Part shown: in pieces, positions 39,435-55,337 of the stretch
How positions within the stretch are numbered: position 1 is the stretch's first letter
How the letters are laid out: every line of letters begins with the position of its first letter
Assembly: GCA_900544595.1 (NCBI GenBank)
Contig: UQVQ01000002.1
Coordinates: 75,690 to 139,689, forward strand
Direction: 5' to 3'
DNA: 64,000 nt
Source of the DNA: an uncultured Bacillota bacterium
GTDB taxonomy: Bacteria > Bacillota > Clostridia > Christensenellales > UBA1242
Translations under genes and position numbers: made by a program
The notes under the pieces: generated by a model
Databases searched by the model: none
Told to the model about the DNA's origin: nothing
What the model saw: the letters and a program-made list of their open reading frames with translations, nothing else

Positions 39435-39523
39435 CTCTAAATTAATTTGATTGTTATACTTGTTTTTTAGTTCTTGTGTCTTTGATATTCTCGCTTTATT
39501 GATATTCTCATTTTTTTCTTTTT

Positions 39524-40795
39524 CTAACTTTTCTGCAAATTTTTTGCATTTTTCTTCATTTTTTTGTCAGAAATATCATTTTTTTCATTAAATTCTTTAA
39601 TTTTATTATTTTTTTCTAAATCAAGTTGCAAAGATAAGTCATCTAAATACTCATGAACTTCATCATTAATAATGTTGTTATATTGAGTTTCAACTTTGGC
39701 TTTATCATTCAAGTAATCGTTTTCAAATTCTTTTTCATACTTATCTGTGTTTGGTAAAATATCTTCTGCAAAAATTTTATATCTTTCATCTAATTGAATT
39801 GATTTTATTCCTGTTTGATTATTACTTGGTTCTTGTGCTGTTAAAGAAATGTCCTGTCTAGTAAATCTATTTAATAGTAATTCTTCTTTTGGTTTTCTAT
39901 CTTTTTCTGTCATAGCAGAATAAATTTCTTTTTTATTAAAGTCAACTTCAATGCTTACAAGTGGAAAACTCTCTGCCCCATCAACATTTTCAGTTATAAC
40001 AATTTGGTCATCTCTAACAAGTTCTTTATTTAATAATAATCCACTATATCTTTCTTCATTAAGTCTATAAACATTTCTAGGAATAATAAAAGTATTTAAT
40101 ATTTCACATTTATTAAATCTAATACATTTTTCAGATTGTGCTTCTAAATATTGTTTTCTAAATAATATATAATCTTTCCATTCTTCATAAGTTTGTAATA
40201 CTTTCTTATATTGTTTTACATAGAAAGGACTATTGACTAATCTATAAATAAAATCATTTGTTAAAACATTGCTTGCTGAATATTCATCAATGTTAACACC
40301 AAAATTGGGAACCTTAATTCCATTTGGAAGAACTTTTAATTCAAAAGCAACTGAACAATTACATTGAACACTTATCTCACTAACTTTATCTTCAATTTCA
40401 TCTATAAGTTCAATACCTTTAACGACAAACAAATAGTTTTTAAGACATTTTATATCTCCAATGATAATAATATCTTGACCTTCTGGTAAGAACCTTTTTA
40501 TTAAGGTATCCTTTTCTGGCCTTATGACAACATTTCTATAAATGTAATTTCCCTTTTTATCGCATTCCGCCCTTCTATCAAATGCCGGCATTGAAAAATG
40601 ATATATATTGGTCTTGTATGGGTTAAAACATTGATTCATAAATTCCTTAAAATTTTCAATAGTTGCCTTTTGAGTGTTTCCCATTTTCCTATAAATATTT
40701 GAATATTGCTCAACTAATGATGTGGAAAAATAGTCATCCCAATTTTGACTCCCTTTAACCATATTAAATGTGCAATCTAAAAATAAAAAATTCAT
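39524..40795 (-). CDS. Unknown ~420-aa protein; probably the N-terminal part of the downstream helicase gene, split by a frameshift
   Basis: GGAGGG RBS 5 nt before the ATG at 40795. Its 3' end overlaps the open frame of 38217..39566 by ~40 nt. Inserting one A in the A7 tract (39559-39565) would fuse them. Confidence 0.5.
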   Translation of the reverse strand: MNFLFLDCTFNMVKGSQNWDDYFSTSLVEQYSNIYRKMGNTQKATIENFKEFMNQCFNPYKTNIYHFSMPAFDRRAECDKKGNYIYRNVVIRPEKDTLIKRFLPEGQDIIIIGDIKCLKNYLFVVKGIELIDEIEDKVSEISVQCNCSVAFELKVLPNGIKVPNFGVNIDEYSASNVLTNDFIYRLVNSPFYVKQYKKVLQTYEEWKDYILFRKQYLEAQSEKCIRFNKCEILNTFIIPRNVYRLNEERYSGLLLNKELVRDDQIVITENVDGAESFPLVSIEVDFNKKEIYSAMTEKDRKPKEELLLNRFTRQDISLTAQEPSNNQTGIKSIQLDERYKIFAEDILPNTDKYEKEFENDYLNDKAKVETQYNNIINDEVHEYLDDLSLQLDLEKNNKIKEFNEKNDISDKKMKKNAKNLQKS

Positions 40796-41316
40796 CCTAT
40801 CCCTCCAACACGACATTTGTCAATACTAACCCATTTGCATTATAGCATATAATCAAAAGATTATCTTACTAAAATAAAAAAATCATCAACTTGTGTTGAT
40901 GACCAAAAATTTCTTTTTTCATGCAACACAAACAATGGAGCTAAATCCCATATAATTGAGTTACATACTTATAATTTTATCTATCTGGACTGTAGACCCG
41001 AACTTATAATACTCTCAAGGAAAACGAATACTATAAGATTTATAAAATGTAATTATATTAAATTATGTGCATTAGTTGACCTTCTTACCTGATATCCCTT
41101 GAAATATCTCATCACAACTCTATTATGCAAGAATAGAATAACAAAAACAATATTTTTTGTCAAGTATTACAAGGATTTTTTAATTTTAATTTTTCATTCT
41201 ATTTCGAATATAGCGCTCTCGTGTGTTCATCATTTGAACACGCGGGAATATTTTTATGTAAAAAATTTACCAACTCCAAGAGTTCAGCGTTTGAACTCTT
41301 CAAAAAAATTTACAAG

Positions 41317-41376
41317 AAAAAATAACCCAACACTAGTTGAGTTATTTTCTATATAAGTTATTAAATTTAATATATC
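41317..41376. repeat. Left copy of a ~60-bp direct repeat (terminator hairpin plus 30 conserved nt)
   Basis: AAAAAATAACCCAACACTAGTTGAGTTATTTTCTATATAAGTTATTAAATTT... About 90 percent identical to 46787-46846. Confidence 0.8.
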
Positions 41377-41440
41377 CTCATATATTTAAGGACACTTTCA
41401 TTCAAAAATTTAAGACAGGAAATTGAAAATCAATAAATAA

Positions 41441-41626
41441 TTATTTCTTTTCTTCCCATTTAGAACAAGCTCCATTCATGCAACCTTGGTTTCCATTTCC
41501 TCTTGATTTAATTTTGCAAACGTGTGTGGAACCTTCCCATTTCACAGAACTTCCTTGTCGTTGCGAATTTCCTCCAAAATGCTGACAAGTACAACAACAT
41601 TTTTGACTTACTGGTGTTGAATTCAT
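41441..41626 (-). CDS. Small Cys-rich protein (61 aa, 7 Cys, CCCTC motif)
   Basis: AAGGAG RBS; 27 nt after the GmrSD-like gene. Cys at positions 10, 11, 12, 14, 37, 49 and 53. No family recognised. Confidence 0.5.
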   Translation of the reverse strand: MNSTPVSQKCCCTCQHFGGNSQRQGSSVKWEGSTHVCKIKSRGNGNQGCMNGACSKWEEKK

Positions 41627-41653
41627 TTTTTAACTCCTTTTAATATACATATA

Positions 41654-43516
41654 TTATTTTTTAAATATAAACTTTGTTATTCTTTCTGCCACATTATTTG
41701 TCTCATTTTCTATATTTCCTTTATCCCATATTGGTTTTTCAATATTTTTATATTTTATCGCCAAGTAAGACGCCATTGGGTAATGGCTGTCTGCATAACA
41801 AAACTTTCCATCTATTGAATGGTGGACTTTAGTTCTAAACCAATCGTTACTTATAGACCTATTTATTTTTTGTTCTAGTAATATCTTATTTCCTATTTTA
41901 TTTACTATTTCATCAAACTCGTCTTTATCTTTTATATTGGCATCAATTTGTATTGCATAAATATTATGTCCACTAGCAGGCATTATGTGCTCTATATCAT
42001 ATTTATCATTTAAACTAAATTCTAAATGTTTTTCCTTAGCAAAAATAAATTCATTTAAATATACCAATAAATTTTTATCATAATCAGTTATATTTAATTT
42101 TATATCTTCTTCTTTCCAGTTAGAACAAATATGATTATTAAAATCTTCTACTATTTCAGAAATTGCGATACTATTGTTTAAGAACTTAACAGATTCGCCA
42201 AATAAAAACGTTTTAAAATTTTTACTTGAATAGCCGGCATCAACCAATTCTAGAATTACAAATAATCTCAACATAGTTTCTGAAAGTAATTCAACATTAT
42301 TTTTATCCAAAATATGGTTAATAAACCTATTAAAATAACACCCTAAAAATAATTTTGCGTTTTCGTTGAATTTTAATAGAATGTTTACAATTGGCATTTC
42401 ACTAACTTGGCTCCAAATTTTTGCAAGTGCGAGCATCTCGGTACAAGTCTTAATAGGGTTATCTATCAATTCTTTGTTTATTGCTGTAAAATATCTTCTT
42501 ACTCCCGGCACTGTAACATCAATAGACCCTGTTGATGTAACTACTTCATTATTTTTAGCTCTAGTAAGATACATATATTGCATTAAAATAGAATCTATGT
42601 CTAATATATTTTTTGCTGATAAAGCGTTCACAACATCCAATAATTCTTTCCAAATGTTAGAAAATTCACCATCTTTATTTAATCCTTTAGAAGTTGCGAA
42701 CAATTTTGCCGAAATTATATCCGCATCGCTTAATGGCATACCATCTGAGTTAAGAGAATTAAACATTGTTATAGCTTGTTCAATATTCCAACTTTTAATT
42801 TCAATGACTTCACATTTTTCAATTATAGTTTTTGCTATATTATTTACTTGACTACTATCTAATTCTTGTAATTTACCATAGAAAAACTTAAAATTTTTGA
42901 AAAAATTAGTATATATATTATCTTTTTGTTTATATTTTATTTTAAATACTTCGCGTTGTGCATCATCGTAATCTACAGCCTGCAGTATCCTATTTAACTC
43001 TTTTTTATATTCATCATTTTCATTATTTGATTTATTGATAAGAATATTTAATTGACTATAAAGTTTTTTATCTTCTTCTACATTTGGTTTTTCAGAAACA
43101 TCTTCAACTTCAGCATTATATAAAATATTTAAAATGGTTTTTCTACGATCTTTTAAACCTCTTAACAAACTACTAGACTCTTCATCATTTTCGCTAATTC
43201 GGCTAAGTAGATTATTAATATTTATCAGTAAAGCTTTCAGTAATAGTAAAAATGTAGTTGTTCTTTGTTGTCCATCTATTAGTTCATATAATGTATCTTT
43301 ATCATTACAACTAATAATGATTGTTCCAAAGAAATAATTATCTTTACCTTTGTTCTCTTTCTCTGAAAAATCGACAATATCTTGCCAAAGTTTATCACAA
43401 TTTTCAATTCCCCAAGAATATGGTCTTTGATATTCTGGTATTACGAATACTGCATCATCATCTAACTTTAAATATTCTCCAATTTTTCTTAATTTTGGTT
43501 CTATGTTTTTTGCCAT
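41654..43516 (-). CDS. GmrSD-family type IV restriction endonuclease (DUF262 + DUF1524)
   Basis: N-terminal IPEYQRPYSW and DGQQRTTT (DUF262/ParB-like NTPase). C-terminal DIEHIMP ... IGNKILLEQKINRSISN (DUF1524 His-Me finger). Confidence 0.85.
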   Translation of the reverse strand: MAKNIEPKLRKIGEYLKLDDDAVFVIPEYQRPYSWGIENCDKLWQDIVDFSEKENKGKDNYFFGTIIISCNDKDTLYELIDGQQRTTTFLLLLKALLININNLLSRISENDEESSSLLRGLKDRRKTILNILYNAEVEDVSEKPNVEEDKKLYSQLNILINKSNNENDEYKKELNRILQAVDYDDAQREVFKIKYKQKDNIYTNFFKNFKFFYGKLQELDSSQVNNIAKTIIEKCEVIEIKSWNIEQAITMFNSLNSDGMPLSDADIISAKLFATSKGLNKDGEFSNIWKELLDVVNALSAKNILDIDSILMQYMYLTRAKNNEVVTSTGSIDVTVPGVRRYFTAINKELIDNPIKTCTEMLALAKIWSQVSEMPIVNILLKFNENAKLFLGCYFNRFINHILDKNNVELLSETMLRLFVILELVDAGYSSKNFKTFLFGESVKFLNNSIAISEIVEDFNNHICSNWKEEDIKLNITDYDKNLLVYLNEFIFAKEKHLEFSLNDKYDIEHIMPASGHNIYAIQIDANIKDKDEFDEIVNKIGNKILLEQKINRSISNDWFRTKVHHSIDGKFCYADSHYPMASYLAIKYKNIEKPIWDKGNIENETNNVAERITKFIFKK

Positions 43517-43525
43517 AATCTTCTC

Positions 43526-44506
43526 CTATTCATATCTTTTGTTTATTTGTTTGACTATTTCTTTTATCTTATCCCTTGTGTCTTTTGGGGATAAAAGTTC
43601 TATATCTTCACCATATTGTAAGCACCAATAGATAAGTGAAGTTTCGTTTGCTGTTATATCTGCAAATATTGAGTTTTCTTTTTCATAAAGACTAGCATTT
43701 TTACCAAACCATTCTTCAACATAATTTGCAGCTTCTTCTCTATGAATTTTTACTGTCGCATTTATCGTTTTTGTCGCAAACATATAAATGTTTTCATTTA
43801 CATATTTTGCAATATCTAATCCATTTTCAAAACCTTTAACTTGCGTTACTGGTTTTATTGGTGTGTCTAAAATTTTAATGTTATGTATTCTTTCAAGCTT
43901 GTAGTTTCCTATTTCATCAAAATAATCATAATTACAAACTAAAAAATATTTTCCTTGATTATTTATTAGGCAATATGGGTTAACTTTATAGGGGTGCTTT
44001 TTTGTATTATTGTTTTTATATCCATTTCTAATATAATCAAACTCAATCTGTCTGTTATTTTCAATAGCTTCGTTAATTATATCAACATTATAAAATAGTT
44101 CTTTACTATCAGTTCTATTGAGTTCATCTGCTTTATACACATATTTGTATTGTTTTCGCTGATAAACACTTAAAAATTCTGATAGTTTTTTCGCAAGTTC
44201 TCTTGATTGCTTACTATTTATGCTTTTACTAGAAAATACAGCATCAACCAAAAACCTAATTTCACTTGGCTCAAACTCTCTACTAGCCAGATATGAGCCA
44301 GCATTTGTTTTGACAATGTCATAACCAAAATCTATCAAACTATCAATATTTGTGGCAATAGACTTTCTTTCACAAGTCATTCCATAAATATTGTTTATTT
44401 TAATAACTATATCATTTTGAGATAATAAATGATTTTCATCACTATAATCTCTTAACACTTGTAATGTGTATAGAATAGATAGTTTTTTATTTGATGATGA
44501 TGGCAT
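43526..44506 (-). CDS. WYL-domain transcriptional regulator (BrxR/CapW-like)
   Basis: N-terminal wHTH (LSILYTLQVLRDYSDENHLLSQNDIV...RKSIATNIDSLIDFGYDI). Central WYL-type segment (KVNPYCLINNQGKYFLVCNYD....YKLERIHNIKILD). Confidence 0.8.
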   Translation of the reverse strand: MPSSSNKKLSILYTLQVLRDYSDENHLLSQNDIVIKINNIYGMTCERKSIATNIDSLIDFGYDIVKTNAGSYLASREFEPSEIRFLVDAVFSSKSINSKQSRELAKKLSEFLSVYQRKQYKYVYKADELNRTDSKELFYNVDIINEAIENNRQIEFDYIRNGYKNNNTKKHPYKVNPYCLINNQGKYFLVCNYDYFDEIGNYKLERIHNIKILDTPIKPVTQVKGFENGLDIAKYVNENIYMFATKTINATVKIHREEAANYVEEWFGKNASLYEKENSIFADITANETSLIYWCLQYGEDIELLSPKDTRDKIKEIVKQINKRYE

Positions 44507-44521
44507 ATATTCTCCTTAATG

Positions 44522-44842
44522 TCAATTGGTTCTATAACCACTTCTTCTTAATGTTTCTTGTAATTTTCTTTTGAATTCTCTTTCATCAACCATATCATCA
44601 AGTTTATAATCAAATCTTGCGCCATTGTAACTTGATGAAGAACGAACATCTTTTGCTCCAGCAGTAGATAAAAAGTTTTGTATCTCTTTTTCAGGGTCAG
44701 CACATTTAATTGTATATCTTACTTCGATTTCGCCACCACAACTTCTTCTTATATAAATATTTCTTGCTCCGCTACGCGAAAGTTGTTCTTTAATTTCATT
44801 CTCTGGTTTTTTAAATTCTACATTAATGTTTGAATATTTCAT
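44522..44842 (-). CDS. Hypothetical 106-aa protein with an internal triplication
   Basis: AAGGAG RBS. The three units are PENEIKEQLSRSGARNIYIRRS / PEKEIQNFLSTAGAKDVRSSSS / DEREFKRKLQETLRRSGYRTN. No family recognised. Confidence 0.5.
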   Translation of the reverse strand: MKYSNINVEFKKPENEIKEQLSRSGARNIYIRRSCGGEIEVRYTIKCADPEKEIQNFLSTAGAKDVRSSSSYNGARFDYKLDDMVDEREFKRKLQETLRRSGYRTN

Positions 44843-44885
44843 TTTAATTTCTCCTTTATAATAACATATTTCTTTTTATTTTGTT

Positions 44886-46151
44886 TTAATTTTTTATAAT
44901 TTTTTTTATATCTTCTGAAATTAGCAACTTTTTCTTGTTTAATTCACTTGCTAGTTTGTCTAATGTGCCACGATTTTCAATTAGTATTTGTTTTACTTGT
45001 GCATAACTCTTTTCTAATTCATCATTAATGGATTTGTTTTGAAAAAATTTTTGCAATTCAGACACTTCGAAAGAAAAATACGAAGAACATTTGTCAAATC
45101 CATTTCCAGCATATTCAATGATAATTCTTTTTACCACTTCGACAGCTCTTTCAATATCTGATGAACAGCCAGCATCAAGTGTGCCGTATTTTATTTCAGT
45201 GGCACATTTTCCACCAAGCAAACATAATACTCTATTTTTCATGGATTTAACAGACTGCCAATAGCTTTCATCTCTGTAATATGCTGTAAAGCCACCAATT
45301 GATGAACCTTCATGCCCACCAATAGAAATCATTGTTACACTTTCTGGTTCCAAAATTTCGGCAATCAAAGCATGCCCAGCTTCATGATAAGCAGTTTGTT
45401 CATTGTCCTCACAAGTTCCATTTTTTATTGTTTCAGGAGCATTGTAAATAGTTCTAATACAAGCTCTTATAATATCATCAAACTCAATTTTATCTTTATT
45501 CTCAAATCCCGCATAAATTCCAGCTTGGTTTATTATTGTTTCAAGTTCCGCACAAGACCTGCCATTTAAAATTCGTGCTAACTGCTTAACATCTAGATTA
45601 GCAACTGCATTCTTTCCACTAAGGTAATGCTTGATTATCATTTCAGCATCTATCCCTTTTGGTGCTTTGATTTCAATACTAGTATCAAACCTTCCAGCTC
45701 TTAGCAAAGAATCAGGGACTAAACACAAATCATTTGCGGTTGCAATCACAAATACTTCAGAAGATTTAACATCATCAATACACGATTGAATAGTTACATA
45801 TTCTTCTGCATTCTTATGGTCTTTGTCTTCGTTTGCAAACTTATCAAAATCATCTAACAAAACTAATGACGGAGCATTGTTTTTTGCATCTTCAAAAGTT
45901 TTTTTGATGAATTTAATAAATTCATCATCTGGCAAATTTTTTCTGCAAACATAACATTTTTTACCACATTCTTCAATAAACGAATTAGCAATCAATGTTT
46001 TGCCTACACCGGGTTCTCCATAAAGTAATAAACCTTTTGGAATTTTGACACCCAATTTTTGATACTTATCACTATTTTTTATTACATCACAAATTCTTGC
46101 AATTTCTAACTTAATAGCATCATATCCAATAACCTTTTCAAAACCATTCAT
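44886..46151 (-). CDS. Soluble FtsH-like AAA+ ATPase / M41 zinc metalloprotease (no transmembrane region)
   Basis: Collinear with the FtsH cytosolic part: KIPKGLLLYGEPGVGKT (Walker A), LVLLDDFD (Walker B), VIATAN (sensor 1), LLRAGRFD (Arg fingers), AYHEAGHALI (HExxH), GCSSDIERA (third-ligand region). The ORF starts directly at the AAA module, with an AGGAGG RBS. Confidence 0.8.
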   Translation of the reverse strand: MNGFEKVIGYDAIKLEIARICDVIKNSDKYQKLGVKIPKGLLLYGEPGVGKTLIANSFIEECGKKCYVCRKNLPDDEFIKFIKKTFEDAKNNAPSLVLLDDFDKFANEDKDHKNAEEYVTIQSCIDDVKSSEVFVIATANDLCLVPDSLLRAGRFDTSIEIKAPKGIDAEMIIKHYLSGKNAVANLDVKQLARILNGRSCAELETIINQAGIYAGFENKDKIEFDDIIRACIRTIYNAPETIKNGTCEDNEQTAYHEAGHALIAEILEPESVTMISIGGHEGSSIGGFTAYYRDESYWQSVKSMKNRVLCLLGGKCATEIKYGTLDAGCSSDIERAVEVVKRIIIEYAGNGFDKCSSYFSFEVSELQKFFQNKSINDELEKSYAQVKQILIENRGTLDKLASELNKKKLLISEDIKKIIKN

Positions 46152-46359
46152 ATAATACCTCCTTTGGTTTTCAATTGCATTATACCAAAATGGGTGTACT
46201 AAAAATCGGACAACGATAATGAATTTTTATTTTTTTCGATAACACCTCCTAATCAAAATTTTTCAACACTACATATGTAATGTTTGAATAGTTAGTATAA
46301 ACTGCATAATTTGAGAGAATAATTAACTTAAATTATATTAATCGCGCAAACATTATACC

Positions 46360-46430
46360 ATAACTGATTGAATAATTATATCATTTTGTCAAAGATTTAC
46401 AAATTTTATAATAATAGCTCAATCAGTTAT
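46360..46430. promoter_or_regulatory. 12-bp perfect inverted repeat pair bracketing the putative XRE-gene promoter (candidate operator)
   Basis: ATAACTGATTGA (46360-46371) and TCAATCAGTTAT (46419-46430), with TTGTCA ... TATAAT-like boxes between them. Confidence 0.4.
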
Positions 46431-46471
46431 TTTACATACTCGTTTTAAAATATATGTAAGGAGCAATCATT

Positions 46472-46786
46472 ATGGAAAAAATCACTTATGACGATGTTAT
46501 AACTAGAATGGGGTATTTTAGAAATAAGGCAAATTTGTCTATGAGAGAAACCAGCTTGCAACTAGGATACAACCCACAATTTATGTCCACAATTGAGAAT
46601 AAAACAATAAAATTAAAGGTAAAAACTCTTTTGGAATTTTGTGACCTAGTAGATATTACTCCACAAGATTTTTTCTATATGGGGGAACACTATAACAAAG
46701 AAGATAAAAATGTTTTAGATTTATATAACCATTTAACAGATGATAATAAACAAACAATATTAGATTTAATGAAAAAGTTGAAATAA
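46472..46786 (+). CDS. XRE-family helix-turn-helix transcriptional regulator
   Basis: LSMRETSLQLGYNPQFMSTIENKTIKLKVKTLLEFCDLVDITPQDFF is a typical Cro/C1 HTH. Divergent from the FtsH-like operon. Confidence 0.8.
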   Translation: MEKITYDDVITRMGYFRNKANLSMRETSLQLGYNPQFMSTIENKTIKLKVKTLLEFCDLVDITPQDFFYMGEHYNKEDKNVLDLYNHLTDDNKQTILDLMKKLK

Positions 46787-46846
46787 CAAAAAATAACTCA
46801 ACAAAAATTGAGTTATTTTCTATATAAGTTATTAAATTTTATTTAT
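46787..46846. repeat. Right copy of the ~60-bp direct repeat; also a bidirectional terminator
   Basis: AAAAAATAACTCAACAAAAATTGAGTTATTTTCTATATAAGTTATTAAATTT... Perfect stem AATAACTCAA / TTGAGTTATT at 46791-46816. Confidence 0.8.
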
Positions 46847-46862
46847 CTCTTATACTGAGATT

Positions 46863-47234
46863 TTATAAATTCACCATAATACTTTTTACTCTTGGCATAA
46901 AAACATTGTATATATTCACAAGTTCGTTTGCCACCTTTTCTACATCAAGGTCAAAATCATAATTTGTATAGTTTGTTGTATCAAATCGTGGGTCGTTTAA
47001 TCGGCGAGGGCTTGGTTTTTTGTAATACTTTCCAAATCTACCAATTCTTGTTGCTATTTTTTCGTTATTTCTATCCCAAATAAGTTCATAACCAATTTCG
47101 TTTTCAATCTCTTTTTTATGCGAATAAAGTCTGTCATAAATAGTTTTTGCGGCTATACTTGGAAAAAAAACGCAAATATCTTTTAAATATCCACTTACAA
47201 CTCTTGTGTTTACCATAATTTTATTGAATGACAA
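46863..47234 (-). CDS. DUF4268-like protein, tandem copy A (possibly degenerate)
   Basis: KKEIENEIGYELIWDRNNEKIATRIGRF pattern (E.elG..L.W.r...k..RI), typical of DUF4268 by recollection. About 85-90 percent identical to copy B. Confidence 0.45.
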   Translation of the reverse strand: MSFNKIMVNTRVVSGYLKDICVFFPSIAAKTIYDRLYSHKKEIENEIGYELIWDRNNEKIATRIGRFGKYYKKPSPRRLNDPRFDTTNYTNYDFDLDVEKVANELVNIYNVFMPRVKSIMVNL

Positions 47235-47320
47235 ATCACTTGTTTTACGAACATCAAAATGCTCGCAATTATTTTTATATTTTACAAAGAAATCAGGGTA
47301 ATTTTCTTTAAAACATTGTG

Positions 47321-47755
47321 CTAATTTATCAAAGAAACTCTTCTTATCTTTTCTTTATCTCTCATTTCAGAAACCTCTATTCCTAAAATACTTTTTACTC
47401 TTGGCATAAAAACATTATATATATTCACAAGTTCGTTTGCTACCTTTTTCACATCAAGGTCAAAATCGTAATTTGTATAGTTTGTTGTATCAAAACGTGG
47501 GTCATTTAATCGGCGAGAGCCTTTTTCTGTATAATACTTTCCAAATCTACCAATTCTTGTTGCTATTTTTTCGTTATTTCTATCCCAAATAAGTTCATAA
47601 CCAATTTGTTTTTCAATCTCTTTTTTATACAAATAAAGTTTGTCGTAAATAGTTTTTGCATCTTTATCTCCAAGATACACACAAATATCGTGCAAACAAG
47701 CATAACGGTCAACTCTTACATTTACCATAATTTTACTAAATGTCAAATCGTTCAT
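47321..47755 (-). CDS. DUF4268-like protein, tandem copy B
   Basis: Same family pattern as copy A. Its frame is open upstream to the stop of the preceding 200-aa ORF, and it runs into copy A before a 1-nt deletion shifts the frame. Confidence 0.45.
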   Translation of the reverse strand: MNDLTFSKIMVNVRVDRYACLHDICVYLGDKDAKTIYDKLYLYKKEIEKQIGYELIWDRNNEKIATRIGRFGKYYTEKGSRRLNDPRFDTTNYTNYDFDLDVKKVANELVNIYNVFMPRVKSILGIEVSEMRDKEKIRRVSLIN

Positions 47756-47893
47756 TTTGCGAATATCAAAATGCCCGCAATTATTTTCATATTTTACAAC
47801 AAAATCAGAGTTGTTTTCCTTGAAATATTGTGCTAATTTATCAAAGAAATCTCTTCTTATTTTTTCTTCATCTCTTATTTCAGAAACCTCTAT

Positions 47894-48496
47894 TTATAAC
47901 TCTGGACATATTTTTTCCAATTTTGAAGAAGCTGTTATACCGTGTGGATTTGTTTGTATATCGTTTAAATCTTCATTTTCTCTGTCGTAAATTTCTATAC
48001 CACAATCTTCATATGCTTTTAGCGGATTTTCACGATGTTTTCTGTATCCTAGTGCGTTTAGTTGATTGTTTTCATCTTTTGTTATCCAACAAAGTCGTTG
48101 CTTTGAAATAAGTTCTTTGATTTTTTCAACATCAAGTTTTCCTTCTTTGCAAAGTTTAAGCAGTTTGGTTTTAAAATCAAAAGCAGTCGTCATATGTTCG
48201 TCTACAAAATGTTGATGAACAACTATTTTTGTCCCACCATTTGTTTTAACTGAACTCAACCAATCAAAATCCCTTATGTCTTTGCCTGTCAAACCATAAA
48301 ACTCGTTGTAAGCTTTTACACTTGCTAAATGTTTTGGAAATTTTGATAAAACCCACTCGTCGTGACTTGCTCTATCAAATATCCACTTGTTCGCAACTGT
48401 TGGATTATGAACCATTGCTTGGGTATAATCTAGTAGCATTTTGCACCAAGTATCAAAATCCTCTTCTTTATTCATAAATTTTTCGTTCGTATTCAT
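47894..48496 (-). CDS. Hypothetical protein (200 aa)
   Basis: AGGAGG RBS before the ATG at 48496 (MNTNEKF...). No family recognised. Confidence 0.5.
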   Translation of the reverse strand: MNTNEKFMNKEEDFDTWCKMLLDYTQAMVHNPTVANKWIFDRASHDEWVLSKFPKHLASVKAYNEFYGLTGKDIRDFDWLSSVKTNGGTKIVVHQHFVDEHMTTAFDFKTKLLKLCKEGKLDVEKIKELISKQRLCWITKDENNQLNALGYRKHRENPLKAYEDCGIEIYDRENEDLNDIQTNPHGITASSKLEKICPEL

Positions 48497-48566
48497 AATT
48501 CTTTCCTCCTTTTTGTATATGAAATATGTTATAAAAATTCTCAATTAAAACAAGTAAATTATTTTA

Positions 48567-49010
48567 TCATACATTTTTATTCTTAAAATCTCTTATTTTG
48601 TTTAATGTTATTTCACATCTGTTCCCACCAAAATACTTAAATAATAAATTCTTTAATATTGGTAATTTTGTTACTTCGTAAAATAGAGTTAATGAAGAAC
48701 AAAATTTTATTGAATCTATAAATCCCAATATTTCATAGATAGTAAAGTCTTTTAAATTTAACAAAATATTACAACATTCCAAATATCTATCCCACAAAAT
48801 TTTGTTTTTCGCATATGCCACCGCTTCTTCTATATTTTCAATTCCATAAATATTTGAATATTCACTTCTTCCAAGGCCCTTTAATTGTGGGAATATATAC
48901 CAAATCCAATGTGTTTCCTTATAACCATTTTTTAATTGTTTGATAACATCACAATAAATTTCATTTTGTGCTTTTATAAACCTTTCCAAATTATATTTAT
49001 CATTCTCCAT
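48567..49010 (-). CDS. DUF1810 family protein
   Basis: LERFIKAQNEIYCDVIKQLKNGYKETHWIWYIFPQLKGLGRSEYSNIYGIENIEEAVAY matches the DUF1810 signature (F..AQ...Y......G.K.SHWMW.IFPQ..GLG.S). Confidence 0.75.
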   Translation of the reverse strand: MENDKYNLERFIKAQNEIYCDVIKQLKNGYKETHWIWYIFPQLKGLGRSEYSNIYGIENIEEAVAYAKNKILWDRYLECCNILLNLKDFTIYEILGFIDSIKFCSSLTLFYEVTKLPILKNLLFKYFGGNRCEITLNKIRDFKNKNV

Positions 49011-49022
49011 CAAAACACCTGT

Positions 49023-49484
49023 TTATTGTTTCAAATTTGCAAAAGGCAACTGTCCATATTTGTTTTTAAATTCACACAACAATTCTTTTTTTACTTTTTC
49101 AGAATTTTCACACTTCATATACCATATATGCAAGTCTTCATAATTTTGTATTTGTCCAATTATTCTACCACCGAAGGCAGAAACATTTTTCCCACCCCAA
49201 AACTTGAGATGTTCCAAGACTCTTTTGTAAACAGTTTTAGATTCGCTTTTCCCAATATATAGAACATCCGCATCCTTCAACCATCTGTTTTGCAACTCAT
49301 CAATGGAAACAGCGACTTTTCTATCTCTCCATATCTCTAAATTAACAGCCTCGTTAAAATTTACTTTTCCAAAATCACTAGGAAGAACAATAATATAAAC
49401 TCCATAGTAATTTCCTTTGCTCTCGTTCAAATCTCTCAATGTTCCGCCAAATTCAAAATCTCTATCAAAAAATCTTTTAATCAT
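49023..49484 (-). CDS. Possible GIY-YIG-superfamily nuclease with a ~40-aa insertion
   Basis: GVYIIVL ... VLYIGKSE ... YKRVLEH ... KKELLCEF ... PFAN fit the GIY / YIG / Arg / Glu / Asn order. By-eye assignment only. Confidence 0.4.
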   Translation of the reverse strand: MIKRFFDRDFEFGGTLRDLNESKGNYYGVYIIVLPSDFGKVNFNEAVNLEIWRDRKVAVSIDELQNRWLKDADVLYIGKSESKTVYKRVLEHLKFWGGKNVSAFGGRIIGQIQNYEDLHIWYMKCENSEKVKKELLCEFKNKYGQLPFANLKQ

Positions 49485-49753
49485 TTTTTAATCTCCTTAA
49501 AAAAACAATCTCCTTGCTTTACCTTATATTTTAAGATTAAATCTATCAATTCTCTCAAAAATAAAATCATGTTTTTGTTTTGTAGGCGTTTTGTAAAATG
49601 CGTGATACTAGGAGTATTTACTCCTTTTTCTAAGCACCTTTCACACAAACACCATCTCCCATGACAATGATATTTTTTGTAAACGATTTCAAAATCTTCT
49701 AATTGCGGTTCACTAAAAATTTCGCCACAACACTTACACTTATATAGTGGCAT
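49481..49753 (-). CDS. Small Cys-rich (zinc-ribbon-like) protein
   Basis: MPLYKCKCCGEIF...YHCHGRWCLCERC. Stop overlaps the next start (ATGA). The start codon is uncertain (the ORF track extends to 49813). Confidence 0.35.
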   Translation of the reverse strand: MPLYKCKCCGEIFSEPQLEDFEIVYKKYHCHGRWCLCERCLEKGVNTPSITHFTKRLQNKNMILFLRELIDLILKYKVKQGDCFFKEIKK

Positions 49754-49763
49754 ATAAAATGTT

Positions 49764-50054
49764 TCAGTTCTCTCCACTATTTTTCTCCAAAACAGTTGTG
49801 TTCGTTGGTACACTTCCCCCTAGAAGTGGATAGGACTTCATGTAACAACCTTTACCTTTAATTGTAACAATGTCGCACCCATACTCCCTAAGATAACCAA
49901 TATTGCGAGCAATTGTTTTTCTATCACAAGAAATCCCACAGAATTTGCTAATTTGTTCTGCGATTTTTGTTTGATGCAAAGGACAATTTTCCGAACTTCC
50001 ATATTTTAATGCATCATAAACATATAATATAATAAGTTTTTTGTGTTTTTTCAC
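49764..50054 (-). CDS. Stand-alone winged-HTH protein related to the N-terminus of WYL regulators
   Basis: GTG start with a GGAGGTG RBS. LIILYVYDALKYGSSENCPLHQTKIAEQISKFCGISCDRKTIARNIGYLREYGCDIV parallels residues ~9-66 of the WYL regulator at 43526..44506. Confidence 0.5.
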   Translation of the reverse strand: MKKHKKLIILYVYDALKYGSSENCPLHQTKIAEQISKFCGISCDRKTIARNIGYLREYGCDIVTIKGKGCYMKSYPLLGGSVPTNTTVLEKNSGEN

Positions 50055-50155
50055 TTACACACCTCCACTATTTCAATTATATCATACCACATGAGACAAA
50101 AAGGACGCATATAGTTCTAAAAAAACTTAAATTGGTTTCCATCTTATACATTTCT

Positions 50156-50776
50156 TTAATTTTCCAGCAAATCTTCGATATTACAACCCAAAACTCTTGC
50201 TAGTTTGTAAAGTGTTTCAACTTGTGCTTTGTTTATGTCGTTTCTTCGTTGTTCATACATTTGAATAGAGCGAAGTTCCACTTCTGCAAGACTTGCAAGT
50301 TTGCTTTGAGATAAGCCTCGTGCTTGTCTTATTTTTTTTAGGTTGGTGATTTCAGACTTTTTGAAATATGTGTTCGCTACATCAAAAAACTTTGTTACAT
50401 CGGCTTCGTGCAAGGTTGGATATAGTCTTAAAACTTCTTCAATAGGCAATGAATTATTTATCTTATAGAAAGAATATCCTTTTTTGTGTTGGAATTGTGC
50501 CAAAACCCAGCCAGCCCAATAATATTTATCTTTGTTTATATCTTCTTTGTTTGGAATGGATTTTTTTCTATTATAAATTTCATTCAAATAATCTAATGCA
50601 GAGCAGGTAAGATATTTTGGATTTCCTTTTTCAATTTGTTTTGCCACATTGGAATTGACAAAGGTGTTCCAAAAAATTGTAGGGTTTATTCCAATATCCA
50701 CAGCATGCTCAAACATTACACCCAAATTTTCGGATAGATTTGGTAAATATAAATCGTTATATGATTGAATCGCCAT
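50156..50776 (-). CDS. DUF3791-like N-terminal domain fused to a C-terminal XRE-type HTH
   Basis: C-terminus IRQARGLSQSKLASLAEVELRSIQMYEQRRNDINKAQVETLYKLARVLGCNIEDLL is a classic XRE HTH. It overlaps the upstream DUF3990 gene by 20 nt, and the DUF3990/DUF3791 pairing is common in Firmicutes. Confidence 0.6.
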   Translation of the reverse strand: MAIQSYNDLYLPNLSENLGVMFEHAVDIGINPTIFWNTFVNSNVAKQIEKGNPKYLTCSALDYLNEIYNRKKSIPNKEDINKDKYYWAGWVLAQFQHKKGYSFYKINNSLPIEEVLRLYPTLHEADVTKFFDVANTYFKKSEITNLKKIRQARGLSQSKLASLAEVELRSIQMYEQRRNDINKAQVETLYKLARVLGCNIEDLLEN

Positions 50777-51440
50777 CTTTTAACCCCTTTCTCATAATAT
50801 CCACTACAAATATATCATTGGTTAGTGTCGCCGACTTTCTAGTACCTTTCAAATAATCTTCTCGTGCCTTTTCATCTCTTGCTTTTCTTTTTGTAAAGTA
50901 TTCCAATCTGTCTGCAGTTTCAAAACCTTCAAAATGAAGTTTACTAAATGCAAGTTCGCTAACTATTACAACTTGCTTTCCAAGTTGACCTAATTCCATA
51001 GCTTGACTTAATTTTCTAACAGGAATTGTATTGTTTACAAAATCTCTTGCAAAACTAAAATATGAGTCGTCTGCTCTAAACCCAATAACTATATCGTAAT
51101 TATTTACATCAATGTAAAAGTTTTTGAGCAAGTATTCTTTTGCTTGAATAGATATATCATTGCTCAAATCAAAAGTTCTAAATTTTAAAAGTATTGCAAT
51201 CCAGTTCAGTATTGAATATCTTTTATCTGTTAAATCTAGAATTTTAAGCCCAGACAAATCAATAGAATATTTATTTGCAAATCCATTATTTTCGTTATTA
51301 CTGCAAGACCACTCTTTTGCAAGTTCCAAACTTTCTGTGCAATAAAATCCAAAACCATAATCATTTTCGGCTTTCCCACCGTGATAATATGGTTTTTCAA
51401 TAATATCTTTTGAACCGTGATAAATAACCAACTTTGACAT
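50757..51440 (-). CDS. DUF3990 domain protein (ADP-ribosyltransferase-like H-Y-E motifs by eye)
   Basis: MSKLVIYHGSKDIIEKP...DYGFGFYCTES is typical of DUF3990 N-termini; AAGGAG RBS. Confidence 0.7.
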   Translation of the reverse strand: MSKLVIYHGSKDIIEKPYYHGGKAENDYGFGFYCTESLELAKEWSCSNNENNGFANKYSIDLSGLKILDLTDKRYSILNWIAILLKFRTFDLSNDISIQAKEYLLKNFYIDVNNYDIVIGFRADDSYFSFARDFVNNTIPVRKLSQAMELGQLGKQVVIVSELAFSKLHFEGFETADRLEYFTKRKARDEKAREDYLKGTRKSATLTNDIFVVDIMRKGLKDGDSII

Positions 51441-51468
51441 CTTCTTCTCCTTTTAATCTATGCTATTA

Positions 51469-51576
51469 TATCATTACAATGACACATTGTCAATCAATTA
51501 TGACATTTTCTATCATTACAATGATATATCTGCATTTCAACCAATCACGAATATTAAATTTATATCATTACAATGA
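51469..51576. promoter_or_regulatory. Three direct copies of a 14-bp motif TATCATTACAATGA upstream of the DUF3990 operon
   Basis: Exact copies at 51469-51482, 51511-51524 and 51563-51576. Each contains the inverted half-sites TCATT / AATGA. Confidence 0.45.
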
Positions 51577-52495
51577 TACATTATGAATTATTGTCTTTAA
51601 TAATCATATTAAAACCACTTTGTTAAACTTACAAAGTTTTAGGCAGTTCAAGAGCAACCAATTTTAGTAAAAACATCACATTTGCTGTCAATTGCTGTCA
51701 TTTTTTCTTATCAAAAGACAGCAAATATTTTCTTATATCGCTAAAAGCCTTTATTTTACTGATGTTTTGATGTATAGAGCACACACTCTATTTTACTAGA
51801 ACCCGACATGGGTAAAGTATGGGTTTAGTTACTGGTAATTCTAAAAAGCGCCTCTTAAAATGTTTGTAGTGTATCAAGTGAAAACAAGTTTGAATTAAGA
51901 AATATCAAACTAAATCAAAAATAAGGCATATAAATATCATTAAGCTGGCAAGTGATGTCATTCCCTTATCCAAATTCCTTAGATACACTAAAAACGAATT
52001 AAAAAAGGCAATGCAAAATGACAATAAGATTTTAGTTGTATATTGGAATGGCGAATAAAAAAGCCCAAAGCCCGACTAGGGGTTAGCACTAGTAGATTAG
52101 ATTTTATGGCATAGAGAAATTTCTCAGTCTTTTTAATTCCAAGTTTACAAAAAGGAGTTAAAAATTATGCAAAAACTAGAGATTGAATTTGAAAACGAAT
52201 TAGATTTAACTTTGCTAGACAATGAATTTTTTGTTGCAATGCTAAATCAGATTATGCTTTTCAAAAAATGCGAGGTGCAATATTGAGATCATGGCGTGTG
52301 CTTGTCTTGATACAAGTATTATTTCTTTCGGTTACAGAGCATAAACGAAAACTCTTTCTTGTCAAGGATAAAATGTATTGTTCCACAACCCTTGACAAGA
52401 AAAGAAAAATAATAAATAAAAATATTTTAATCCCTTTTCGTTTCTTTTCGCTCTGTCGAAAGACAAAAATTAAACTAAATAAAAGGAGAAAAATA

Positions 52496-53190
52496 TGAAA
52501 ACAGCAGTAAATATATGCATATAGTTCAGATAGTCAAACTGAACAAAGTATAGAGAACCAATTAAGAGTATGCAAAGATTATGCCCAAAAGAATGATATT
52601 GTCATTGTTGATACATACATAGATAGAGCCATGTCAGGCACAAATGATAATCGTATCGCATTCCAAAAAATGATTAAAGATAGTAGTAATCATCAATTTT
52701 CTATCGTTCTTGTTTACAAGTTGGATAGATTTTCGAGAAATAAATACGAAAGTGTTATTCACAAGAAAACATTAAAGGACAATGGGGTTAAAATCATATC
52801 TTGTATGGAAAACATCCCGGACACGCCAGAGAGAACTTTAATGGAAGCATTACTTGAAGGATTTAACAAATATTTCAGTGAAGAACTAACTCAAAAAGTA
52901 AATCGTGGACTTAAAGAAAGCTGGTTTAAAGGTAATGCTACTGGCGGACAACAATTTTTACGAAAACAAGTATTTGAAGATATGAGTGATATAAAAGATA
53001 CAAAAACTTGTGATAAATACTTTTGTAAGACAAATATACCTCTATAAAGATAAAATCATAATACTTTTTAATTTTGCAACACCACCAGACAAACCAAAAC
53101 TAACAGTTGAAGAAAACATAAAAATAGCAGAACAAATAAACTCTGCTTTATCTAAAACCAATGGTTCGCGCATTAAACTTCCGTCCGCAC
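52496..53190 (+). pseudogene. Decayed serine recombinase (resolvase-domain) gene
   Basis: ATG at 52496 gives MKTAV, then a +1 shift restores IYAYSSDSQTEQSIENQLRVCKDYAQKNDIVIVDTYIDRAMSGTNDNR...LVYKLDRFSRN (catalytic Ser/Arg region). Beyond ~53000 only a short C-terminal-like piece (FVRQIYLYKDKIIILFNF) remains. Most of the recombinase/zinc-ribbon region is missing. Confidence 0.75.
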
Positions 53191-53199
53191 CAAAAAAAA

Positions 53200-53225
53200 C
53201 CGTTTCCTTTGAAACGGCTTTTTTA
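53200..53225. terminator. Bidirectional rho-independent terminator at the right island edge
   Basis: Stem CCGTTTC / GAAACGG flanked by A8 and a T-run. Confidence 0.65.
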
Positions 53226-53292
53226 TTTTATTTAGATATACTTAAACGCGAAAAATTTTTATATGATAATATTTACTTTGCAATAATATTTC

Positions 53293-54201
53293 TTATTCTT
53301 TTACGGAAGCAAAATAAGTTTCAAGTTCTGAAAGGAACATACGCGAAGAGTTTGCCATAAATTTGTCTTTCATATTAAAAACGCAAATTTCACGAGGTGT
53401 AATTTCAAAATCTGTTTTAAGAATTTTTATGTTTTTTGTTTTTAAGTCTTTTTCAATAAAACTTTTTGTTGAAAAGCCAATCATGTCGGTTGCATTTGAA
53501 ACAAAATCCAAAATTATTCCAAAACTTTCGGTTTCAAGGCTTGGCACGATTGTAACTTTGTTTTCTTTGCAAAGTTTATCGAAAAACACGCGGTTGCTTG
53601 AAGGCAATTTTTGCAAAATCATTTGATAGTTTTTAAGTTCATTTTTGGAAACAAAATCGCTTTCAAAATTTTTGTTAACAACAAAACAATCTTCAATTGT
53701 TGTTATAACTTTTTTGTTTGCTCCTTCAATTGACTGGGCAGGCTCGGAAACAATTGCCATATCAACATCGCCACGTTTCAATTTTTCCATAAGTTGCGTG
53801 CTAATTCCGTCAACAATTGAAATTTTTATGTTTGGATGTTTTTCTCGAAATTTAAAAATGAAAGGAAGTAAAAGCCCGCGCATAATCGTTGAACTTGAAC
53901 CAATAACAATTTCGCCGCCCTCAATTTGGTTCCTTTCAAACAACACATTAACCCCGTGTTGAACGCAGTTTAGCGCGCGCTTGAAATCCTCATAAAGAAC
54001 TTCCCCGCTTGGCGTTGGTTTCATTCCTTTTGGCAAACGAACGAAAAGTTCGCAGTTAAACGTTTCTTCAAGTTTTTTAATGCTTTGCGTTATTGCAGGC
54101 TGAGAAACAAAAAGTTTTTCGCTTGCCAAAGTTGTGCTCCCTGTTTCATAAACGCTAACAAAAGTTTTTATTAAGTTTAAGTCAAAATTAGTATTATCCA
54201 T
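53293..54201 (-). CDS. LysR-family transcriptional regulator
   Basis: N-terminal HTH LIKTFVSVYETGSTTLASEKLFVSQPAITQSIKKLEE plus a substrate-binding domain; 302 aa. Confidence 0.9.
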   Translation of the reverse strand: MDNTNFDLNLIKTFVSVYETGSTTLASEKLFVSQPAITQSIKKLEETFNCELFVRLPKGMKPTPSGEVLYEDFKRALNCVQHGVNVLFERNQIEGGEIVIGSSSTIMRGLLLPFIFKFREKHPNIKISIVDGISTQLMEKLKRGDVDMAIVSEPAQSIEGANKKVITTIEDCFVVNKNFESDFVSKNELKNYQMILQKLPSSNRVFFDKLCKENKVTIVPSLETESFGIILDFVSNATDMIGFSTKSFIEKDLKTKNIKILKTDFEITPREICVFNMKDKFMANSSRMFLSELETYFASVKE

Positions 54202-54289
54202 ACTTATACCTCATATAACAACAAGATATTTTACTTATACCATAATTTCTCATATAATGCAACTACATTTTAAAAAAAGGAGAAAAATT

Positions 54290-54895
54290 ATGGCAATTAT
54301 TGTTAATTTATTGGGAACACCAGGAGCAGGGAAAAGCACGGGTTGCGCCTACATTTTTTCAAAACTTAAACTTGCAGGAATCAATGCCGAACTCATAACA
54401 GAGTTCGCGAAAGACAAAGTTTGGGAAGATAATCAAGCAGCGCTTTCAAATCAACTTTATATTTTTGGGAAACAAAACTACAAAATTAGCAGATGCGAAA
54501 AAAAGGTTGATGTTATAATAACCGACTCACCTTTGCTTAACAGCATTCTCTACAACAAAGATAAAGTTCTTGGAGAAGAATTCAACGCGCTTGTTGCAAA
54601 AGTTTTTAAATCATATTCCAACATGACATATTTAATTAACCGAACAAAACCTTATAACCCCGCAGGAAGACTTCAAACCGAAAGTCAAGCGGACGCTCTT
54701 AAATCTTCAATTTTGTCAATTTTAACAAGATATGATATTCCATATAGAGAAAGAAATGGCGACCAGCAATCATACGACCAAATTGCAAACGATGTTATTT
54801 TAACCGTTAAACACCTAAAAGCAATTCGCGCTCAAAACAATTTTAGCACAACAAAAGAGTTCAAGCCCCAAGATCGAATTATGAATTTTGATTGA
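54290..54895 (+). CDS. P-loop NTPase (AAA/kinase-like), function unknown
   Basis: AGGAG RBS before the ATG at 54290. LLGTPGAGKST Walker A and VIITDSP Walker B-like. Divergent from the LysR gene. Confidence 0.55.
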   Translation: MAIIVNLLGTPGAGKSTGCAYIFSKLKLAGINAELITEFAKDKVWEDNQAALSNQLYIFGKQNYKISRCEKKVDVIITDSPLLNSILYNKDKVLGEEFNALVAKVFKSYSNMTYLINRTKPYNPAGRLQTESQADALKSSILSILTRYDIPYRERNGDQQSYDQIANDVILTVKHLKAIRAQNNFSTTKEFKPQDRIMNFD

Positions 54896-55337
54896 TTTCA
54901 AGAAAAAATGCAAAAAATACCCTTGAAAAATTTAAAAAAAGCGATGAAATTACTGTTTCATATAAAATTTTAATTAAAAATTTATAAAAAGTTTACAAAA
55001 AAGCTAATGAAAATAGAAAAACTCATCGATATAATTTCACGTGCTAAAAAAAGGACAATATGATAACCTACAACTCAACATATGTTAAAAAACTTTCAAA
55101 AGATGTTAGCGAAGTTGAAAAAGTTTTCTAGGAAATTTCAGCAGCATTTACAAAAGATGGGCAACTTTATATGCACAATAATGAATCAAGCAGTTATTAT
55201 ACAGATGGTTTAAACCAACCATACACCGCAAAAGAATTTATTAGGGATTCAATTCTTGAAAACAACCGAACTTCTTCCGCAAAGCAAACATCAGATCTTA
55301 ATTTGCAAAAAAAAGAAGCTGATTTGGGCTTCTTTTT

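Follow-up and report, generated by a model that had tools for sequence, protein, structure and literature searches.

A nine-ORF array in a Christensenellales defence island is probably a mosaic of four cassettes headed by a candidate DUF3990 toxin-antitoxin pair

The minus strand of the 64,000-nucleotide (nt) stretch of contig UQVQ01000002.1 analysed here (the window), which comes from an uncultured bacterium of the order Christensenellales, carries nine co-directional open reading frames (ORFs), designated A to I (Table 1). The original prediction, made from the letters alone, had taken them for a second accessory operon inside a defence island, built with overlaps or single-digit gaps. Our ORF check of the window recovered all nine, and the island setting holds as well, with GmrSD, a WYL regulator, an IetA-like AAA+/M41 protein and a superfamily 1 (SF1) helicase lying alongside in a low-GC block. 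The close packing applies to A/B (20-nt overlap), D/E (4-nt overlap, ATGA) and E/F (9 nt), but not to the remaining junctions, which span 10 nt (C/D), 101 nt (B/C), 70 nt (F/G), 138 nt (G/H) and 86 nt (H/I). Several of the proposed domain identities were borne out by profile searches: DUF3990 for A (PF13151, E-value 2.7e-42, 144.5 bits against a cut-off of 32.2), an Xre helix-turn-helix (HTH) in B (HTH_3 at residues 146-203, E-value 5.8e-9) and DUF1810 for F (PF08837, E-value 3.7e-45, 153.6 bits, model positions 2-135 of 136). D likewise reads from the sequence as a Zn-ribbon protein, its stop codon overlapping the start of E.

Comparison of the window with related contigs and loci (L-numbers below; P-numbers denote homologues of protein E) suggests that the nine ORFs are probably a physical array of four independently exchanged cassettes in a recombination-prone and partly decayed defence island. 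Breakpoints in the related contigs fall after B, after E, before G and after I, delimiting the units A+B, C+D+E, F and G', the last being represented by G, H and I in the window. According to DNA comparison, contigs coding an identical A protein fall into several gene contexts. Window position 50152 is joined directly to 46793 in L003, L004, L006 and L045, with none of C-I in between. L046 joins 50137 to 48534, leaving A+B followed by an intact DUF4268 gene, with C-F missing, and L044 keeps 51815-49022 (A-E), has an FtsZ/tubulin-like gene in the slot of F and resumes homology at 48534 with an intact DUF4268 gene. In L001, A+B adjoins wholly different genes. The opposite end of the array can also be kept on its own: in L014 and L017 homology starts at 50438, inside B, and everything from C onward is retained, A and the first half of B having given way to unrelated DNA. 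The 227-residue protein that stands in for A there is unrelated to it. The A+B block itself is 92-97% identical at the DNA level, with the same end points, in L001, L003-L007, L041 and L045. Terminal repeats flanking this cassette, considered as an explanation of its mobility, were not found.

The same picture emerges from a scan of one genome per species, which yielded 53 loci with an A homologue (40-100% identity). Other window genes accompany A+B in just three of these 53 species-level genomes, a different subset in each, and the other 50 have none of the remaining seven ORFs. Treating the nine ORFs as an operon that acts as one unit is thus contradicted by co-conservation, and the parts are best considered cassette by cassette.

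Table 1. Features of the array and its surroundings (window coordinates; aa, amino acids; HTH, helix-turn-helix; wHTH, winged HTH; ART, ADP-ribosyltransferase)
Feature	Position	Strand	Description
A	50757-51440	-	227 aa; DUF3990 protein, predicted ART-fold toxin
B	50156-50776	-	206 aa; N-terminal ~130-aa PDC-M42B-type domain and C-terminal Xre HTH; predicted antitoxin/autorepressor
C	49764-50054	-	96 aa; stand-alone wHTH of WYL-regulator N-terminal type; GGAGGTG ribosome-binding site, GTG start
D	49481-49753	-	90 aa counted from ATG; Zn-ribbon protein (CxxC...CxxC)
E	49023-49484	-	153 aa; divergent GIY-YIG-like, putative nuclease
F	48567-49013	-	148 aa (147/148); DUF1810 protein, Rv1873-like; variable slot
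G	47894-48496	-	200 aa; first 200 codons of the disrupted 374-aa DUF4268-family gene G'
H	47321-47755	-	144 aa; inside copy 1 of the G' C-terminal half
I	46863-47234	-	123 aa; inside copy 2 of the G' C-terminal half
G' C-terminal half, copy 1	47387..47893	-	L012 allele type; holds ORF H; partial PF14088 match, E-value 3.4e-8
G' C-terminal half, copy 2	46863..47386	-	L011 allele type; holds ORF I; partial PF14088 match, E-value 5.4e-7
A+B cassette	50152..51824	-	Horizontal-transfer unit: leader, promoter, operators, A, B; same block in at least 5 contexts
Promoter	51465..51493	-	Sigma-70 consensus: TTGACA, 17-nt spacer, TATAAT, extended-10 TG; 12/12 match
Palindrome TATCATTGTAATGATA	51469-51483, 51511-51525, 51563-51577	-	16 bp, 7-2-7; three copies; putative B operators
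Intrinsic terminator	46786..46823	-	17-bp stem then U run; ends the minus-strand array; shared with a convergent HTH gene
SF1 helicase	38217-39434 and 39524-40816	-	AAA_11/AAA_30, MkoA-like in PADLOC; split into 430-aa and 405-aa ORFs
Resolvase-domain remnant	52631-53047 and 53010-53360	+	From a large serine recombinase; 138 aa left
WYL regulator	43526-44506		326 aa; lies alongside in the island

The first cassette is A+B. A full-length B homologue (32-99% identity) directly follows A in all 53 loci, and the two genes overlap by 20 or 23 nt in 50 of them. The hosts span Christensenellales, other Clostridia, Lachnospiraceae, Erysipelotrichaceae, Bacilli, Anaeroplasmataceae, Treponema and Faecalibacterium. 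On a Collinsella replicon the pair stands alone, inserted between yihA and thrB, and its B homologue is named 'helix-turn-helix transcriptional regulator' in RefSeq. In Treponema saccharophilum the partner of DUF3990 is a 142-residue protein that lacks the HTH and aligns with B residues 3-127. A+B is an abundant gut-microbiome cassette: one 90%-identity cluster of B, with 97% identity to the window protein, by itself counts 1678 member sequences. Phage and replicon records with A homologues comprise only four metagenomic 'phage' records and three large secondary replicons.

A matches the PADLOC model PDC-M42A (PDLC04641) over its length (E-value 4.7e-45, residues 1-196 on model positions 1-196 of 215), and the N-terminal domain of B matches PDC-M42B (PDLC04642; E-value 1.8e-6, residues 4-127 on positions 2-128 of 138). 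The original prediction had called this domain DUF3791-like, an assignment that we dropped for want of support from hidden Markov models (HMMs). PF12668 gives no match in the window protein at E-values up to 0.1 and none in the 120 best B homologues, and it is absent at E-values up to 10 from the N-terminal domains of seven diverse B homologues, remoter homology beyond HMM reach staying possible. Invariant residues of the domain are Y6, Y10, S42, S59, YWxGW at 86-90, Q96, H123 and E124.

Both A and B are under strong purifying selection. The A protein is 100% identical across different species-level genomes despite 20-36 synonymous differences; between the window and L003, for instance, A has 20 synonymous and no non-synonymous changes. 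The ratio of non-synonymous to synonymous polymorphism (pN/pS) is 0.00-0.11 for A and 0.03-0.13 for B. Invariant in A are the motifs YHGS (7-10), NDYGxGFYCT (26-35) and RADD (122-125), with S126 and Y127 conserved in at least 90% of homologues. DUF3990 is listed among the families of the Pfam ADP-ribosyltransferase (ART) clan (PMC7955679), and on the strength of the motif pattern H8 (in YHGS) and Y33 (in GxGFYCT) may be equated with the His and the Tyr motif of an ART of the H-Y-E type. A separate observation concerns the boundary between the two genes. Relative to L012 and L018, the DNA of B-F is 99.3-100% identical (B, E and F exactly), whereas A reaches no more than 96%, owing to 23-24 synonymous and three non-synonymous changes; this contrast points to a breakpoint of homologous recombination inside the cassette, where A meets B.

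The region upstream of A holds a promoter and repeated palindromes. The 12/12 promoter precedes the start codon of A by about 25 nt and is unique within 46600-52300; promoter-like matches in total did not exceed the shuffled control, and only this perfect site is counted. The first copy of the palindrome TATCATTGTAATGATA sits between its -35 and -10 elements. The motif is matched five times against 0.21 expected and nowhere else in the 64-kb window; its copies are embedded in 29-nt repeats spaced by 42 and 52 nt. It is kept upstream of A homologues in related loci and travels with the cassette. In divergent B clades the palindrome becomes TACTCCnnnnGGAGTA, TACCATTGCAATGGTA or TATCACTGCAGTGATA within the same 7-2-7 frame, and such a change along with the B clade is what would be expected of an operator co-evolving with an HTH repressor. 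In the distant A/B clade with TACTCCnnnnGGAGTA (L070, L081, L084, L086, L087 and L093), the right arm of the palindrome contains the Shine-Dalgarno sequence and the palindrome starts about 23 nt before A. Besides serving as a DNA operator, TACTCCnnnnGGAGTA could mask the ribosome-binding site in the transcript. At the far end of the array, the intrinsic terminator has a folding energy of -20.7 kcal/mol (z = -5.24), and none of 200 shuffled sequences was equally stable.

Two small, adjacent, co-directional and translationally coupled genes that always occur together, the second coding for a DNA-binding domain and the first preceded by palindromes (putative operators) at the promoter of the pair, have the anatomy of a type II toxin-antitoxin (TA) system. 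We therefore consider A+B most likely an autoregulated TA or defence pair. In such a scheme A would be a toxin with an ART fold, which B would neutralize through its dedicated N-terminal domain. Acting as an Xre-HTH dimer, B would also bind the three 16-bp palindromes flanking or overlapping the promoter and repress the A-B transcript, and loss or titration of B, for example during phage infection, would set A free.

Alternatively, A+B might be a regulated accessory enzyme with a dedicated transcription factor, A being for instance an NAD-dependent modifier of a small molecule or of phage or host nucleic acid, and the N-terminal domain of B sensing a ligand instead of neutralizing A. The layout of B, a ligand domain plus HTH, is typical of one-component regulators, and the order of the genes, enzyme and then regulator, also fits. 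The HTH-less partner in Treponema implies that the N-terminal domain has an independent role, although a stand-alone protein of this kind suits an immunity protein better than a sensor. Moreover, the 20/23-nt coupling in nearly all loci implies a fixed stoichiometry, typical of TA pairs, DUF3990 serves elsewhere as a polymorphic-toxin tip accompanied by an immunity gene, the pair matches a candidate model derived from defence islands, and it is scattered patchily across phyla, having been transferred horizontally. Taken together, this makes a regulated enzyme an unlikely, if serious, alternative to the TA or defence pair that we favour.

The second cassette comprises C, D and E. The likeness of C to the N-terminus of a WYL regulator was confirmed: its first 71 residues are 42% identical to the winged HTH (wHTH) of the WYL regulator in the same island (E-value 1e-13). 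C is a wHTH only, the WYL and WCX domains being absent. We rejected the possibility that it is a truncated WYL regulator; an 82-residue orthologue, 86% identical, is present in the unrelated contig L094 and shows the short form to be native. Some public gene calls read C through its TGA stop codon (104 instead of 96 residues; 49740-50054 and L002:11387-11701) and omit D, and this longer call is taken to be an annotation artefact. For D, no family match was found.

The assignment of E to the GIY-YIG nucleases, also part of the original prediction, fares differently depending on where one looks. E itself stays below the cut-offs of the Pfam models (E-values 0.035 and 0.07; 14.5 and 13.9 bits, the GIY_YIG_2 cut-off being 22.4), but the family motifs are kept, and the fused homologue P0181, 54% identical to E, exceeds the GIY_YIG_2 cut-off with 24.1 bits. 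Across 69 sequences, down to about 25% identity, the superfamily invariants are G28, Y30, Y76, G78, R88 and N150; the E family also keeps G106. Among remote relatives, 9 of 68 match PF20815 (GIY_YIG_2) and 5 of 68 match PF01541 (GIY-YIG). The close family of E, 20 clusters, is the tip of a superfamily with 1318 representatives. In a confident AlphaFold2 (AF2) model of E (predicted local distance difference test score, pLDDT, 93.9), the best Foldseek matches in the PDB are to R.Eco29kI, and these are weak and not significant (E-values 0.5-1.5, TM-scores 0.33-0.41). Like GIY-YIG nucleases of the PF20815 and R.Eco29kI type, E has counterparts of GIY (G28, Y30) and YIG (Y76, G78) together with Arg88 and Asn150; unlike them, it is extended at the N-terminus by a beta-hairpin, and the Zn-ribbon partner is encoded separately. 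The catalytic Glu does not keep to a single alignment column.

A D-like domain is fused to the N-terminus of an E-like domain in P0181, P0184 and P0189; therefore, D and E are one protein in those lineages. L044, L094 and L095 have C-, D- and E-like genes side by side. In L094 the order is the C orthologue, a D-E fusion and a 215-residue protein consisting of a tubulin/FtsZ GTPase domain, and the same trio is found in L095 and L044. Thus, in three lineages a mini-FtsZ directly follows the wHTH/Zn-ribbon/GIY-YIG-like module, in the slot occupied by DUF1810 in the window. These mini-FtsZ proteins (L044:5928-6593, L094:1265-1912 and L095:2344-2967) contain the GTPase domain only (207-221 residues; PF00091, E-value about 1e-33) and have no significant PADLOC match. 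More distant E homologues are solo genes; an 85-residue protein encoded upstream of the one in L035, checked as a possible D, is unrelated to it. On these comparisons of sequence and gene order, C+D+E is a real small module in which a wHTH regulator accompanies a putative nuclease, Zn-ribbon and GIY-YIG-like, split between two overlapping genes.

F matches not only the whole DUF1810 profile but also the M. tuberculosis protein Rv1873 (PDB 2JEK, E-value 3.4e-29). The family has no reported function, none having been found in the literature, so nothing mechanistic can be transferred to F. Since F is absent from L044 and L046, it is not tied to its neighbours and is an exchangeable passenger gene.

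The remaining three ORFs turned out to be the wreck of a single-gene DUF4268 protein. In most sister contigs a single DUF4268 gene of 373/374 residues follows DUF1810, and G' is intact in L011, L012, L014-L020 and L044. Protein and DNA alignment with the intact genes L012:8989-10113 and L011:8989-10110 shows that G is ended by a GAA-to-TAA nonsense codon at 47894-47896. Beyond it lies a tandem duplication (47894..47387 versus 47381..46878, 86% identical), whose second copy is out of frame owing to a 1-nt deletion near 47337. H and I have internal start codons and no Shine-Dalgarno sequence. The 'unknown 200-aa protein' of the original prediction is therefore a fragment of one 374-residue gene, and its two DUF4268-like copies, although they do give partial DUF4268 matches, are fragments of that same gene; the alignments led us to reject both G as an independent protein and H and I as two genes.

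Intact G' homologues (350-376 residues, 41-91% identity) are widespread solo genes in unrelated contexts. Residues 203-317 of intact G' match the PADLOC candidate PDC-S11 (E-value 3e-10; model positions about 160-276 of 313) and PF14088 (E-value 3.8e-9). Like PDC-S11, an 'S' (single-gene) candidate, G' is a solo gene, and its C-terminal half matches; unlike it, G' has an unrelated N-terminal domain, the match is not full-length and the window copy is disrupted. The N-terminal 200 residues, which carry conserved His, Glu and Cys residues, have no match in PDC-S11, Pfam, PDB or BFVD. The AF2 model of the intact protein (pLDDT 84) found nothing significant in PDB or BFVD, and we assign no fold; a weak sequence match to RMI1 (E-value 0.005) was not taken as meaningful.

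With G' broken, it might be asked whether C-I as a whole is mostly non-functional debris of a decaying island in which A+B alone is alive. The pseudogene pieces G, H and I, the last two without ribosome-binding sites, would fit this, as would the broken recombinase and helicase nearby. E also differs from its L044 counterpart (L044:5447-5908) by 12 non-synonymous and two synonymous changes (pN/pS about 1.4, on small numbers), a pattern that could reflect relaxed or diversifying selection. Yet C, D, E and F are all of full length and preceded by good ribosome-binding sites, E retains every family-invariant residue, F spans the whole DUF1810 profile, and the short C has its close orthologue in an unrelated contig. 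Wholesale decay of C-I is therefore distinctly improbable, and a set of exchangeable cassettes, one of them broken, remains our preferred description.

How does A+B relate to described systems? The pair is already catalogued as a candidate, PDC-M42, of which the window pair is another member: A corresponds to M42A over its full length, the N-terminal domain of B to M42B, and in both cases the genes are adjacent and co-directional. The difference is that the window B adds a C-terminal Xre HTH, which the M42B model (138 positions) lacks. As far as we are aware, PDC systems are candidates from computation that have not been validated by experiment, and we know of no characterized member of the A+B family; PDC-M42 was not mentioned in the literature that we searched. 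The suggestion that the array might hold a new TA or immunity module is thus upheld in that the lead pair is strictly conserved and TA-like, but not as regards the novelty of the candidate. RES-Xre (ParST-type) systems likewise pair an ART-clan toxin with an Xre-HTH antitoxin that also bears a neutralizing domain, and the HTH of B weakly matches the Xre_ParS antitoxin model (E-value 1e-4, below cut-off). In A+B, however, the toxin is DUF3990 and not RES, the toxin gene comes first (the reversed order), and B has its HTH at the C-terminus and an unrelated neutralizing domain. The family of A also occurs in the Serratia marcescens effector Rhs5 of the type VI secretion system, which carries DUF3990 (PF13151) as its C-terminal toxic tip, with the cognate immunity gene downstream (PMC4524185). 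Whereas that tip passes from cell to cell within a large Rhs protein, A is a free-standing cytoplasmic protein of 227 residues with an HTH-bearing partner.

DarTG, in which the ART-clan toxin DarT is encoded next to its antidote gene, has a role in phage defence. The likeness lies in an ART-clan toxin gene with an adjacent antidote gene; the differences are that DarT belongs to DUF4433 and DarG is a macrodomain hydrolase, whereas B gives no macrodomain signal and has an HTH. The DarTG precedent among ART-clan TA systems raises the question whether the N-terminal domain of B might be an enzymatic antidote that reverses the modification made by A, rather than a stoichiometric inhibitor. Its invariant polar and aromatic residues could indeed form an active site, but no similarity of the domain could be detected to macrodomains, to ARH enzymes or to Pfam families of any kind, no PDB relative of B was found outside the HTH, and the tight translational coupling favours a 1:1 complex, so that we regard an enzymatic antidote as quite improbable.

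Several points weigh against parts of the interpretation offered here. The ART assignment of A is made from Pfam clan membership and the motif pattern; the third catalytic acidic residue is a candidate, D124 or D125 in RADD, from motif mapping, and no relative of A with a solved structure was found by single-sequence or profile search of PDB chains. As to the separateness of the cassettes, there is no convincing terminator between B and C, where the spacer has a weak A-U hairpin only, and no structure was found in the F/G spacer. Transcription from the A promoter could therefore continue past B, the cassettes may well share a transcript, and cross-talk in the host is possible; physically, the array may be an operon and yet not function as one unit. 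C-D-E contexts other than that of the window come from three lineages only. Finally, the broken G allele occurs in at least 19 contigs from several samples, and the 200-residue fragment could have retained a function.

That the nine genes constitute one multi-gene defence or immunity system, headed by A+B as regulator or toxin and with C-I as effectors working alongside, is nonetheless the least tenable option and highly improbable: although the genes are co-directional with some overlapping junctions, end in a single strong terminator, lie in a defence island and recur in full arrangement in several metagenome samples of the same lineage, those recurrences are near-identical strains, and co-conservation together with the clean cassette breakpoints contradicts a single system, because A+B is mostly alone and otherwise joined by a different subset each time, C-I can be lost, E and G' are solo genes elsewhere and G, H and I are one pseudogene.

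Thus, a tidy co-directional array in a defence island need not represent one system, and packing is no proof of it. Here, comparison with sister contigs both resolved exchangeable cassettes and exposed a pseudogene that had been read as three 'genes'. A+B offers a ready experimental target, with a defined promoter, three putative operators, a predicted toxin with candidate residues H8, Y33 and D124/D125, and a predicted two-domain antidote; if confirmed, a further ART-clan toxin family would join the TA and defence repertoire. More tentatively, A+B could perhaps represent an experimentally uncharacterized family of ART-type TA or abortive-infection systems, whose toxin would act on DNA, RNA, protein or NAD+, and C-D-E (with the GTPase-only mini-FtsZ elsewhere) an undescribed nuclease-based defence or addiction module. 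Under that reading the A+B family may have spread horizontally through gut Firmicutes, Spirochaetes and Actinobacteria, with an antitoxin combining a family-specific neutralizing domain and an Xre repressor that reads the 7-2-7 palindrome. Outside the window, two small new leads emerged, the D-E fusion and the mini-FtsZ that recurs as a neighbour.

The surroundings of the array show further signs of decay. The SF1 helicase is unbroken in L011 and L016, where it is one gene of 859-863 residues, and its split form is probably another pseudogene of the window strain. The serine recombinase is whole in L018:3423-4982 (519 residues, CcrB-like), and its remnant in the window suggests that the island is an immobilized integrative element. 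After the G' cassette the order of genes is HTH104, AAA/M41, WYL and GmrSD, the AAA+/M41 protein being FtsH-like and resembling IetA. The GmrSD gene (41654-43516) codes for 620 residues in the window and for 578 (without a GmrSD_C match) or 336 residues in L011, L012, L015 and L016; island decay thus differs from strain to strain. An element of about 70-86 nt that contains the terminator is present at 46772-46854 and 41317-41384 (86-88% identical), the two copies ending the DUF4268 gene and the GmrSD block, respectively, and recombination at the ends of cassettes could make use of it.

A phage origin was considered and rejected, a PHROG search having given no informative matches. No Rfam families were found across 38000-55000, and the nearest tRNAs lie at about position 34 kb of the window. 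Just outside the low-GC island lies a tetracycline resistance gene (35749-37668, minus strand) for a ribosomal protection protein of the TetM/TetW/TetO/TetS family (639 residues; NF033148, 1195.6 bits against a cut-off of 1100). A tmRNA gene at 11916-12266 (minus strand) encodes the tag peptide ADNRNLAVAA.

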